Below are positions 37,909 through 40,698 of a stretch of 64,000 nucleotides of DNA, piece by piece. The notes under the pieces are model-generated. The model was not told the DNA's origin and searched no databases. It saw nothing but the letters and a program-made list of their open reading frames with translations. Both the position numbers and the translations under genes were made by a program. Every line of letters begins with the position of its first letter. Positions within the stretch are counted from its first letter, which is position 1. Origin of the DNA: Escherichia coli (lineage in GTDB: Bacteria; Pseudomonadota; Gammaproteobacteria; Enterobacterales; Enterobacteriaceae); NCBI RefSeq assembly GCF_003334255.1, contig NZ_QOWU01000007.1; one strand, given 5' to 3'.

Positions 37909-38318
37909 CTGATGGAGAGGGGCGGTGCTGCCTCTCTCATTCAGGTCATTTATATTAGTCCTTGGCTATTTCGGTTATATTAAATAAGAACTCTATAAAT
38001 TTTTATTCTTCGTTGGCTCCATACGTGTCTTGCTACATCACTGTTCAGGAGCATTTAAATATTATTTGTAGAACTGAGTGGCAATTATCGCAGATAATGC
38101 TTAATTCATCATCTTAGTTCATGTTTGAGCGATTTTTGATAGTCAAAACCCCCTCTGGTGCCATACTTTTCTCATAAATATTTTTAAAATCTATAGCTAA
38201 CAAATATTATGCAAAGATAATGGACTAGCATCATTGTCAGTATCATTCATTTACTGCTCTGTATGTTATGAATAATTATGTTGTATGTTTGATCTTAAAC
38301 CGTGGGAAGGAGGCTATA

Positions 38319-38426
38319 ATGGTTGCCAATATTAATCTCATTAAACAAGAAAGTTATTCTGTTGTTAATTTAGAAAAACAACTTTCCCGAACTGTTACCA
38401 ACAAAATTATAACGATGAGCAAGTAA
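38319..38426 (+). CDS. Candidate small protein (35 aa), unannotated as far as I know
   Basis: ATG at 38319 preceded by a strong SD (AAGGAGG, 5-nt spacer). Encodes MVANINLIKQESYSVVNLEKQLSRTVTNKIITMSK, followed by a hairpin (GACCGGT...ACCGGTC). Not in the supplied track (below its size cutoff). Confidence 0.3.
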   Translation: MVANINLIKQESYSVVNLEKQLSRTVTNKIITMSK

Positions 38427-38760
38427 AGACCGGTTGGTGGCAGTACTGACCGGTCTGTGATGAAAGATTAATTTCACCTTAAATCCTGGTGCTGTTAGGA
38501 TGCTGACGTTTTTCGGCTACACCATTCAGATTATGCAAATAAATATCTCTGAATATAATATATTCATAGCACCCATAATTCATCCTGGGCGATAACTAAA
38601 CCATTTTTGAGTAATAAATGAAACAACTGCAACACTCTTATTATTTCTGGAAAACGCCTCGCAAAAACAAAACAACATGCAAAAATCCGCTTTTTTTAAA
38701 TGATTTTCCGGCGTAATTTTCGCACATACATTAATGAGTAATATATGTAAGGTATTGGTA

Positions 38761-38979
38761 ATGGCGATGAATACGGTTTTTCTTCATTTATCAGAAGAGG
38801 CAATTAAACGGCTGAACAAGCTTCGGGGCTGGCGTAAGGTTTCACGATCTGCAATTTTACGCGAAGCGGTAGAGCAATATCTGGAACGTCAGCAATTCCC
38901 GGTGCGTAAAGCAAAGGGAGGCAGGCAAAAGGGGGAGGTAGTTGGTGTTGATGATCAGTGTAAGGAGCATAAGGAATGA
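38761..38979 (+). CDS. yiiE: Ribbon-helix-helix (CopG/Arc/MetJ-like) small protein YiiE
   Basis: 72 aa from MAMNTVFLHLSEEAIKRLNKL. Contains the RHH-like core ...SRSAILREAVEQYLER.... Paralog of yiiF. Confidence 0.8.
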   Translation: MAMNTVFLHLSEEAIKRLNKLRGWRKVSRSAILREAVEQYLERQQFPVRKAKGGRQKGEVVGVDDQCKEHKE

Positions 38980-39220
38980 CAAAAATTTTTCATTCTTGAA
39001 TATAAAAAACAGATGCCCTTATTCTGGTATTAATACAAGGCTGTTTTACTTGAACTTATAATAACTGCAACTGTTACATCATATCTGGAAAACGCCTCGC
39101 AAAAATAAAAAATGATGCGTAAATGAGCTTTCTTTAAAGATTCGGCAAGGGTACTTTTCTCTCCATAGATTCAAAAATGATATTGGCGAGATATTTATGA
39201 ACTCTCTGGCAGGTATAGAT

Positions 39221-39439
39221 ATGGGCAGAATTTTACTCGATTTATCGAATGAGGTGATTAAGCAACTTGATGATCTCGAGGTGCAGCGTAATCTTCCTCG
39301 TGCGGACCTATTAAGGGAAGCGGTAGATCAATACCTGATAAATCAATCGCAAACAGCAAGAACCAGTGTTCCTGGCATCTGGCAAGGGTGTGAGGAAGAT
39401 GGTGTCGAATATCAGCGTAAGCTGCGCGAGGAATGGTAA
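39221..39439 (+). CDS. yiiF: Ribbon-helix-helix small protein YiiF (paralog of YiiE)
   Basis: 72 aa from [19 protein letters not shown]. Shares ...[13 protein letters not shown]... with YiiE. Confidence 0.8.
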
Positions 39440-39488
39440 TGGGAAAAAATGATGTCAATCAGATTGCTGACAACGTGCGCGTTGTTCA

Positions 39489-39587
39489 TGCCGGATGCGG
39501 CGTGAACGCCTTATCCGGCCTACAAAGTCGTATAAATTCAATGTATTGCAGTTTATTGGTAGGCCTGATAAGCGCAGCGCATCAGGC
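39489..39587. repeat. REP/BIME elements
   Basis: GCCGGATGCGGCGTGAACGCCTTATCCGGCCTAC (canonical REP) plus an inverted partner GGTAGGCCTGATAAGCGCAGCGCATCAGGC. Confidence 0.9.
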
Positions 39588-39768
39588 AATCTTACGCTTG
39601 TCATCAGTCTCATGCCCATAACCTTATTGATGTGGTGGTGGGTAAATTGAGGCCAAACCGGCACTGGCGGCATAGCTTGAGGTGGTAACGCGGAATACGA
39701 GAGATGGTGTCGTCACACCCTATGAGCTGTAATCCGGGCGACCTGCGCCACCCGGAAAACGTCAGAGA

Positions 39769-40698
39769 TTACTCTCCTTCACCCGGAAACAGGAACGGGT
39801 TGATGGAACTGCGGGCATAGCCTTCTTGCTCCATTCGTGCGTCCAGTACCAGAGAGGCGAGGTCATCTGCTACGGCTTCGATTTTTGGATCTTTTTCCTG
39901 ATAGAGAATTTTCAGGTAAGTGTCGCAGTCATCGCAGCTTTCGGCTTTAATCGCGGCCTGTTCGTCATCCAGCGACCAGTAATGCAGTTTGCCGCTCTGC
40001 TCGCAGTTGCTGCATTTTACGCGCACTACGTGCCATTCAGTTTCACACAGGTTGCAGTGCAGGTAACGTAGCCCCTGAGTGGTGCCAATTTGCACCATGC
40101 TGGACACCGGCATAGAACCACAAACCGGGCAATATTGACGTTGCTCGCCGTATTCAGCGCGGGCTTTGCCGGGGATCAGATTGGCCATCTGCGCCCAGTA
40201 GAGCGACAGTGCAGCCCAGATAAACGGCGCTTTATCGCTGCTGACGGACGAGAAATCAGAGGCAAACAGCGCGCTGGCCATATCTTCCAGCTCCTGAGTC
40301 GATGCCTTCTCCAGATTCTCAATCACTGCCAGCGCCGGGCCGCTCATTTCAGGTTTCAGCTCAGCAATCAGCGCCATCAGCAGCTTTTGCCAGTGCTTAT
40401 CACGCGGCAGAACGTGAATATCCAGCGGGGGCTTGCCTTGTGCGCTGGCTTCTTTAATGCGCGCAGTCAGATCCATCTCCAGCGGATGGTCGTACAGCAC
40501 CACTTCCTGGGCGTGGGCGATAAGCGCAGCAAAGCGCAGGTAATCACCCAGAGGATTATTTTCTGCCAGCTCGCGCAGACGCTCGGCGCGGCGGTTGTAT
40601 AAATTCTTGAGCCGAGGGAACAATAACGGCGGAATCATATCCGCCGTACGTTTCTCGCTTGAACCCAGCTCATCTTGCGGGATTATGCGAATACTCAT
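39769..40698 (-). CDS. fdhE: Formate dehydrogenase accessory protein FdhE
   Basis: 309-aa ORF with paired CxxC motifs ([27 protein letters not shown]). Confidence 0.95.

Follow-up and report, generated by a model that had tools for sequence, protein, structure and literature searches.

Between fabY (yiiD) and fdhE, the 64,000-nucleotide stretch of Escherichia coli DNA analysed here (the window; contig NZ_QOWU01000007.1) carries an AT-rich islet with two small genes, yiiE and yiiF, the order fabY-yiiE-yiiF-fdhE and the species being backed by the RefSeq annotation of identical DNA. Our analysis makes it very probable that this islet represents the decayed form of a chromosomal type II toxin-antitoxin (TA) locus, of the kind that pairs a ribbon-helix-helix (RHH) antitoxin, VapB, with a PIN toxin, VapC, in a slot which also collects other small cassettes.

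A profile search matches YiiF end to end to chain A of PDB 7BY2 (E=4e-44), and the protein also matches over its full length the 80-aa structure PDB 2K5J, deposited as 'uncharacterized protein yiiF'. Over 79 residues it is 75% identical to Citrobacter VapB and 66% identical to Klebsiella VapB (tblastn), and its tail is nearly identical to the tails of VapB orthologues. The match of the K-12 protein to Pfam RHH_1 (PF01402) is weak taken alone (E=0.009); the toxin-linked orthologues carry PF01402. Going by these matches, YiiF is a VapB orthologue and is predicted to be an orphan antitoxin. For the Klebsiella pair, the structure of a complex between a 'Ribonuclease VapC' and a 'CopG family transcriptional regulator' has been solved (PDB 7BY2/7BY3). 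In PMC11117207 the Klebsiella VapBC study appears as ref 49 (Kang et al. 2020, J Med Chem), and growth arrest by the toxin and neutralisation by the antitoxin are reported there under that reference.

The genomic position of this pair provides additional support. A tblastn search of a plasmid collection with YiiE returned one Citrobacter freundii and one Klebsiella pneumoniae record with the same chromosomal neighbourhood. In the Citrobacter and Klebsiella slot, fabY is followed by an a/b-hydrolase gene, a single 80-aa CopG-family gene overlapping a VapC-family PIN gene, and fdhE. A scan of one genome per species gave 37 loci, with ~30 non-Escherichia Enterobacteriaceae. In most of these ~30 species, from at least 10 genera, the fabY/fdhE slot contains a single vapB with a full-length vapC behind it; among them are Citrobacter, Salmonella enterica subsp. 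diarizonae, Klebsiella, Kluyvera, Trabulsiella, Lelliottia, Kosakonia, Franconibacter, Superficieibacter and Pseudocitrobacter. Independent truncation or loss of vapC was seen in three loci of the scan. The comparison shows the ancestral Enterobacteriaceae state to be one vapB overlapping vapC; an adjacent toxin, searched for across the family, follows the yiiF orthologue in most of these species as well as in E. albertii and 57 E. coli genomes.

In the window itself, no intact toxin gene follows the antitoxin gene; what remains is the overlap TAATG at 39437-39441, in which the ATG of vapC overlaps the yiiF stop, and two degraded vapC pieces. These comprise codons ~9-31 in degraded form (39612-39676) and the C-terminus with its TAA stop (39677-39732); ~72 codons are deleted and in-frame stops are present. 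VapC residues 102-124 match the relic by tblastn (E=6e-4), and nt 26-91 (E=2e-7) and nt 305-375 (E=8e-13) of E. coli vapC align to it by blastn. The window thus holds a vapC pseudogene relic that is unannotated in K-12. The initial annotation had described orphaned, antitoxin-derived RHH proteins at a degraded locus, which the VapB orthology and the vapC relics bear out. Its statement that no toxin stands beside the genes holds for an intact gene and fails for the relics at 39439-39732, recovered by tblastn, blastn and alignment. The features of the islet, under the names used below, are these:

37909..38318, no strand assigned: AT-rich spacer from the fabY (yiiD) stop to the hypA relic; 96% identical by blastn to L002 1480-1954 and common to O157-type strains
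38319..38384, plus strand: hypA relic, first 22 codons (tblastn, 22/22 residues); a partial pseudogene in the RefSeq annotation
38384..38620, plus strand: 3'-end remnant of a RelE-like/NadS/hyp92 cassette (blastn, 76% to L003 4727-4943, 72-73% to L004/L005)
38622..38760, plus strand: yiiE upstream block, with cassette-end segment, D box and degraded proximal box (repeat search, exact 22-mer, cross-species footprint)
38761..38979, plus strand: yiiE, a 72-aa RHH protein (Pfam RHH_1, E=1.6e-11)
39060..39196, plus strand: yiiF upstream block, with cassette-end segment, D box and degraded proximal box
39197..39439, plus strand: yiiF, 80 aa, predicted orphaned VapB antitoxin (an alternative start at 39221 gives 72 aa)
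39439..39732, plus strand: vapC (PIN toxin) pseudogene relic (tblastn, blastn and DNA alignment with Citrobacter/Klebsiella vapC)
39734..39755, no strand assigned: GC-rich hairpin CCGGGCGACCTGCGCCACCCGG (conserved block in the Citrobacter/Klebsiella vapC alignment)

An 80-aa YiiF is more likely than a 72-aa one, since the upstream ATG/GTG start after GGAGG is kept in orthologues and both 2K5J and RefSeq use 80 aa; of the 72 aa initially assigned to both proteins, the figure for YiiE stands. The hairpin lies between the convergent stops of the vapC relic and fdhE and is conserved across genera, E. coli and Klebsiella included. A shared bidirectional terminator is its probable function, though a consensus terminator scan did not call it.

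The relic is further interrupted by an insertion of ~160 bp, specific to the K-12/O157 lineage, with two repetitive extragenic palindromic (REP) elements (39490-39523 and 39559-39587) which we take to be of the classic form. REP elements and the bacterial interspersed mosaic elements built from them are imperfect palindromes of ~35 nt, GCCGGATG...CATCCGGC, which occur in inverted pairs outside genes. Rfam matches to the REP-derived naRNA4 and ES036 were sub-threshold only (39484-39623), and a first megablast found the sequence at 7-51 places per genome, as for a dispersed repeat. Full-length vapC was detected in 57 of 5426 complete E. coli genomes (~1%) by blastn with Citrobacter vapC. In the three such loci that we examined, yiiE lies upstream and vapC comes directly after yiiF with the TAATG overlap; the VapC of one of them (L008) matches PDB 7BY2_B, 'Ribonuclease VapC' (E=9e-63), and NCBIfam VapC models match the intact alleles below their curated cut-offs. 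Two loci without the REP insertion (L003 and L005) have the same internal vapC deletion. In L004, L046 and L047 (E. whittamii), yiiF is gone, and a part of the block that preceded it now adjoins the vapC 3' end at the junction CTGGAAAACGCCTCGC|GAAATACGAG. These alleles show that in most E. coli, the window included, vapC was destroyed by an internal deletion, and that the REP insertion came later in the K-12/O157 lineage. K-12 would retain no toxin activity from this locus.

The composition of the islet could be read differently. The whole spacer (37909-39770, 1862 bp) has a GC content of 0.396, and its core (37930-39440) one of 0.369 against 0.506 for the window, the lowest of any 1.5-kb stretch in the 64 kb (standard deviation of 1.5-kb windows 0.040). 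The AT-rich islet of the initial annotation is thus recovered by sliding GC content, the final ~330 bp (39441-39768, GC 0.509) excepted; the part at 37909-38620 falls to 0.344. Elsewhere in the window, only ~3001-4500 has a 1.5-kb GC content below 0.42 (0.419). Low GC, together with weak PHROG matches to transcriptional repressors and the induction of yiiF on Rho inhibition, as often for foreign DNA (PMC9308461), would suit a recent horizontal acquisition of plasmid or phage repressors. This we consider highly improbable: tblastn gave 0 matches in 50,697 phage records, the matches in the plasmid collection were mislabelled chromosomes and records with the chromosomal neighbourhood, and the module stands in the same slot across more than 10 genera. 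The horizontally acquired plasmid or phage remnant proposed at the outset is, as a recent acquisition, accordingly not supported for the vapBC core, which sits in one slot of at least 10 genera with no phage matches. On this comparative evidence the module is ancient at the fabY/fdhE site rather than recently acquired.

Some database records call for comment here. The PLSDB entries H31-H34 and H36, 'plasmid' records of 1.0-5.4 Mb, are chromosomes, and a 425-kb Citrobacter 'plasmid' carries the chromosomal neighbourhood yihX-fabY-fdhE-fdoGHI. Loci filed under Bacillus coahuilensis, 'uncultured Robinsoniella' and Chryseobacterium sp. 18061 (L011, L012 and L031) have up to 100% identity to E. coli or enterobacterial versions; these contigs are almost certainly contamination of those assemblies.

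Alignment of the upstream regions of ~20 species revealed two footprints, the proximal box and the D box. The proximal box, TGATATAC-TGGAG-GTATAT-ATG, is composed of an extended-minus-10-like TGnTATACT, a perfect 6-bp inverted repeat, a GGAGG Shine-Dalgarno sequence and an ATG/GTG start. The inverted repeat, ATATAC-N5-GTATAT, lies over GGAGG and the start codon and is intact in toxin-bearing loci, including the vapC-positive E. coli locus L008. The proximal box of K-12 yiiF is degraded (TGATATTGGCGAGATATTTATG vs the ancestral TGATATACTGGAGGTATATATG), as is that of yiiE, and the yiiF promoter would lack both the palindromic operator and the Shine-Dalgarno sequence. Such decay would fit a lost need for tight autoregulation after toxin loss. 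In RHH-PIN TA systems such as FitAB, an inverted repeat over the promoter is bound by a dimer of the RHH protein, whose tail covers the active site of the PIN toxin; on this general analogy YiiE and YiiF may bind operators in the same manner. The D box, with the consensus TGGAAArcGsCTCGCAAAA, lies 113-139 nt upstream of start codons.

YiiE and YiiF are paralogues, with 41% identity over 56 aa (BLASTP, E=3e-12). A direct repeat of ~100 nt precedes each gene (38622-38721 vs 39060-39159, 73-75% identical), with a spacing of 438 bp that is also the length of the duplicated unit, and an exact 22-mer, TCTGGAAAACGCCTCGCAAAAA, occurs at 38646-38667 and 39084-39105 (2 matches vs 0.01 expected by chance). 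The initial annotation thus fared well on the duplication. Its paralogous RHH pair is confirmed by BLASTP, by the RHH_1 match of YiiE and by the YiiF structure 2K5J; its near-identical upstream block, of which the D box is the conserved part, is recovered at 73-75% identity with the exact 22-mer; and its ~440-bp unit of gene plus upstream region copied as one measures 438 bp. The coding sequences are 58-59% identical (40% at third codon positions), less than the upstream repeat in both cases, so the duplication must be old and the upstream block either constrained or homogenised. Each non-Escherichia locus is single-copy, the duplication being confined to Escherichia. In the yiiE block, a diverged 23-nt cassette-end segment (38623-38645) precedes the D box (38646-38667), and the degraded proximal box (38739-38763) comes last; the yiiF block has the corresponding 23-nt segment (39061-39083), D box (39084-39105) and degraded proximal box (39178-39199). 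The 23-25 nt left of the D box are common only to the yiiE copy, the yiiF copy and the end of the RelE-NadS(-hyp92) cassette. These nucleotides represent the 3' end of that cassette, so the cassette was already present in the genome in which the 438-bp unit underwent duplication. The unit therefore comprised 23-25 nt of cassette end, the D box, the promoter region and vapB, and its tandem duplication in Escherichia gave rise to yiiE and yiiF-vapC. The identity between the two upstream blocks is mosaic, with a strain-dependent pattern, which indicates gene conversion between them. A small conserved open reading frame (ORF) in the block was considered and rejected, the ORFs on either strand differing in frame between the copies. 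A structured 5' untranslated region or small RNA was likewise rejected (RNAalifold, 0 pairs on 16 sequences), and an Rfam scan of the block gave no match.

The second copy, YiiE, is 45-50% identical to the VapB of Citrobacter and Klebsiella and matches Pfam RHH_1 (PF01402) at the E-value given above. The gene is found only in Escherichia and occurs in 5395 of the 5426 E. coli genomes (99.4%), while yiiF occurs in 4745 (87%). VapB-type architecture joins an N-terminal DNA-binding domain to a toxin-binding tail; YiiF has both parts, YiiE the first half only. The YiiE tail is homologous to the VapB tail at the DNA level and in the same reading frame, but its aromatic/hydrophobic positions W56, L70 and W74 have been altered or lost. 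The first 50 residues of the protein do not vary among divergent strains and E. whittamii. E. albertii has a single gene, a chimera of a YiiE-type RHH domain and a VapB-type tail, which overlaps an intact PIN gene whose product matches Pfam PF01850; a YiiE-type domain can therefore serve a working antitoxin. The E. coli chimeras of the E. albertii kind are without a toxin. Taken together, YiiE is most likely a dimeric DNA-binding repressor of its own promoter, that is, a domesticated antitoxin, and it may possibly also repress the yiiF/vapBC promoter.

The two copies differ markedly in their pattern of substitution. The ratios of nonsynonymous to synonymous differences per site (pN/pS) given here come from 7-9 alleles, with summed pairwise counts that are not independent, and hence show a direction rather than a precise estimate. 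Codons 1-50 of yiiE, the RHH domain, have 166 synonymous vs 8 nonsynonymous summed differences in nine alleles including E. whittamii (pN/pS 0.01), and the tail reaches 0.53; toxin-less yiiF has 0.64 overall and 0.70 in the tail, and the control gene fdhE 0.03. Among 21 distinct YiiE proteins from a large protein database, minority residues per site number 0.83 in the RHH domain and 4.09 in the tail. We also took as reference the 38 columns at least 95% conserved in 27 toxin-linked VapB orthologues. The vapC-positive E. coli allele is changed at 2 of these, toxin-less yiiF alleles at 6-9 and YiiE at 18, the whole beta-strand and the tail positions W56, L70 and W74 included. These patterns point to a yiiE RHH domain that is under strong purifying selection with a decayed tail, and to almost neutral evolution of toxin-less yiiF. 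The remnant or orphan regulators initially proposed for both genes thus describe yiiF, as a decaying cognate antitoxin, and miss yiiE, a constrained core gene.

A possible function for YiiF in its present state is protection. It could be kept as an anti-addiction factor which neutralises a transferred VapC of the same family, for example the allele of 1% of E. coli or those of neighbouring genera. The VapB-type tail is almost unchanged in all toxin-less yiiF alleles, yiiF is an intact ORF in 87% of genomes, and such roles of orphan antitoxins have been discussed for E. coli (PMC10790755). Nevertheless, we find this explanation unlikely. The pN/pS of toxin-less yiiF is high both overall and in the tail, its alleles carry the 6-9 substitutions at positions invariant in toxin-linked orthologues, its Shine-Dalgarno sequence and operator are degraded, it is absent from 13% of genomes, and a plasmid-borne homologue of this vapBC was not found in the plasmid collection. 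YiiF would keep the fold and tail to bind a VapC of this family, but appears to be drifting.

At the other extreme, both genes might be functionless and en route to loss. Both are dispensable, since strain DGF-298 lacks them (PMC10652928), neither has kept an intact operator and Shine-Dalgarno sequence ahead of it, yiiF appears near-neutral, and deletions, chimeras and insertion sequences are common at the locus. For instance, IS621 and IS1 insertions break the islet in individual E. coli strains (H14, H24), from which the region evidently tolerates disruption. The retention of yiiE in 99.4% of the 5426 genomes, the 166 to 8 excess of synonymous changes in its RHH domain and the invariance of its first 50 residues make this scenario very unlikely. 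A decayed vapBC locus with one drifting and one constrained antitoxin copy is the reading that we retain.

Published information on the two genes is sparse. One study counts YiiF as a transcription factor whose function is unknown and finds it induced when Rho is inhibited (PMC9308461), and a yiiF mutant is among the hits of a silver-resistance screen (PMC6071238). A YiiF variant with 96% identity (P0119) bears the UniRef name 'Thymol sensitivity protein'; our literature search found no paper linking thymol and yiiF. None of the published yiiE/yiiF papers that we found connects the genes to vapBC. Among YiiE, YiiF and the cargo proteins, PADLOC matched none except for generic helix-turn-helix (HTH) hits for NadS, and on this result membership in a defence system was rejected.

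The left part of the islet has a different history. In O157-type strains, hypA, encoding a 297-aa hypothetical protein, is intact and is followed by hypB, encoding a 304-aa one (L002 1890-3704, between fabY and yiiE). In K-12 the deletion junction lies at 38383/38384 (blastn), and ~2 kb with the rest of hypA and all of hypB are gone. Neither protein has a family match in Pfam, NCBIfam, PHROGs or PADLOC, and the 'transposase' label that the PGAP annotation pipeline gives to hypB in some genomes was rejected, as Pfam, NCBIfam and PHROGs offer no support for it. The adjoining remnant (38384-38620) includes approximately the last 12 hyp92 codons and downstream sequence, the hyp92 coding sequence ending at L003 4762. 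The fullest form of the slot is that of L003, with hypA, hypB, hydrolase, RelE-like, NadS, hyp92, yiiE, yiiF and the vapC relic, and the forms seen in O157 and then K-12 are increasingly reduced relative to it. These forms show the left ~700 bp of the islet to be deletion debris of other, truly variable cargo.

Among the other occupants of the slot is a second TA module (L004 4533-5772; L003 3521-4762; L005 2195-3435), in which a RelE/ParE-like toxin is combined with an HTH antitoxin of the NadS family and a gene of 92 aa. Its toxin gene is preceded by a perfect palindrome, GTACGTCAATGACGTAC, and carries a frameshift in L003 and L005; this module is thus decaying too. In strain E14 (L005 4235-5848), a minus-strand pair encoding a 246-aa hypothetical and a 282-aa DUF6708 protein lies between yiiE and the yiiF upstream block. 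The pair is present in 566 E. coli genomes, including ST131, and is at least 99% identical throughout, suggesting that it spread recently. Some E. coli have a HigB toxin with an HTH antitoxin on the minus strand between fabY and the yiiE D box (L010 4159-4922; L053 1834-2596).

A D box stands at every cassette junction of the islet, and this raises an alternative in which the slot behaves as a cassette array. The D box would be att-like, and TA-type cassettes (RelE-NadS-hyp92, yiiE, yiiF-vapC) would be inserted, duplicated and excised by D-box crossover. In three E. coli loci (L003-L005), in Pseudocitrobacter and in K. spallanzanii, two D boxes bracket the RelE-like/NadS(/hyp92) cassette. The copies share only ~19-26 nt and their flanks differ, the outer flanks being ancestral hydrolase-proximal DNA on one side and the RHH promoter on the other. 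The same outer flanks are joined via a hybrid D box in L010, L047 and L053, the product expected of a crossover within the box. The chance expectation is 0.04 hits per 10 kb, and the D box is absent upstream of three plasmid-borne relatives of RelE-NadS, on which ground it was also rejected as a part of that module. Against this, no recombinase gene lies in or beside the islet in any variant, the hypB 'transposase' label being without family support; the D box is not palindromic and appears to be confined to this locus; slippage between short direct repeats would yield the same hybrid; and the hypA/hypB and DUF6708 cargoes are not flanked by a D box on each side. Furthermore, the D box is equally conserved in single-module species, where there is nothing to recombine, so that a cis-regulatory role is at least as likely as one in recombination. 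We hold the cassette array to be a rather unlikely explanation of the slot, and it is similarly doubtful that the yiiE/yiiF tandem arose by a D-box mechanism rather than by ordinary unequal crossing-over. Only as a tentative proposal can the elements be combined into an integrase-less array, in which the D box would act both as a cis element ~115-140 nt ahead of the starts and as a crossover point, and YiiE would be a domesticated core Escherichia transcription factor independent of the toxin.

Several candidate identities for the D box were discarded. It occurs at a median of 2 and a maximum of 4 places per genome, which fits two or three copies at the locus, and it is therefore not a dispersed genomic repeat. 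An integron-type array was rejected, the box being non-palindromic and without consensus structure, with no recombinase in any variant. A sigma-54 (-24/-12) promoter has GG and GC spaced as in TGGCAC-N5-TTGCA. The D box has a compatible GG..GC spacing (TGGAAAACGCCTCGCA) but lacks the conserved C that follows GG, and the identification was rejected; no sigma-54 site at yiiE/yiiF is given in the chromatin immunoprecipitation sequencing supplements of PMC4591121 or in the genomic SELEX (systematic evolution of ligands by exponential enrichment) table of PMC8743547. A consensus promoter scan called fewer sites than in shuffled sequence and none where expected, and the two published supplements searched list no transcription start site for yiiE or yiiF.

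Some considerations weigh against a decayed vapBC locus with a domesticated YiiE. DNA binding, autoregulation and toxin neutralisation by YiiE and YiiF are predicted from homology, our literature search found no functional experiments on either gene, and both are dispensable, being deleted in DGF-298. The selection contrast has the small, non-independent samples noted above. Gene conversion between the upstream blocks complicates the dating of the duplication. The single chimera of E. albertii could alternatively be an ancestral allele. Finally, the D box persists while the operator decays, and a simple model of a dying TA locus leaves it unaccounted for.

Comparison with known systems helps to place the locus. 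The closest is the VapBC of Klebsiella pneumoniae, an orthologous module in the same fabY/fdhE slot, with an RHH (CopG-family) antitoxin bearing a toxin-binding tail, a 124-127-aa PIN RNase and a stop/start overlap. In the window, by contrast, only relics of the toxin gene are left, there are two antitoxin copies, of which the extra one has lost its tail, and the promoter palindrome is degraded. The islet resembles chromosomal integron arrays with TA cassettes in its small promoter-plus-gene cassettes of one orientation, several of them TA modules, each with a short conserved repeat at its boundary. It differs from these in being without an integrase, in a D box of 19-22 nt without an attC-like imperfect palindrome, and in a length of 2-4 units fixed at one chromosomal slot. 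Orphan (solitary) antitoxins have reportedly been described in a population-scale survey of K. pneumoniae. In E. coli they are abundant at population scale (PMC10790755), in a study that makes no mention of VapB or CopG. The likeness to such surveys is an antitoxin kept after toxin loss, here in 87-99% of genomes vs 1% paired. The surveys are statistical, whereas here the toxin relics can be traced together with the ancestral state, the duplication and the contrast in selection between the two copies.

Two long-standing K-12 genes of unknown function thereby gain an evolutionary identity, YiiF as a probable orphan VapB and YiiE as a probable domesticated VapB paralogue. All stages of TA decay are on display at one locus: an intact pair, deletion of the toxin, a decaying operator, chimeras and loss of the antitoxin. 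The locus also offers a natural contrast between an antitoxin apparently drifting after toxin loss and a duplicate apparently under strong constraint. The D box adds a small conserved element that marks a recombination-prone junction, and the question of what role an orphan antitoxin plays becomes directly testable in K-12.

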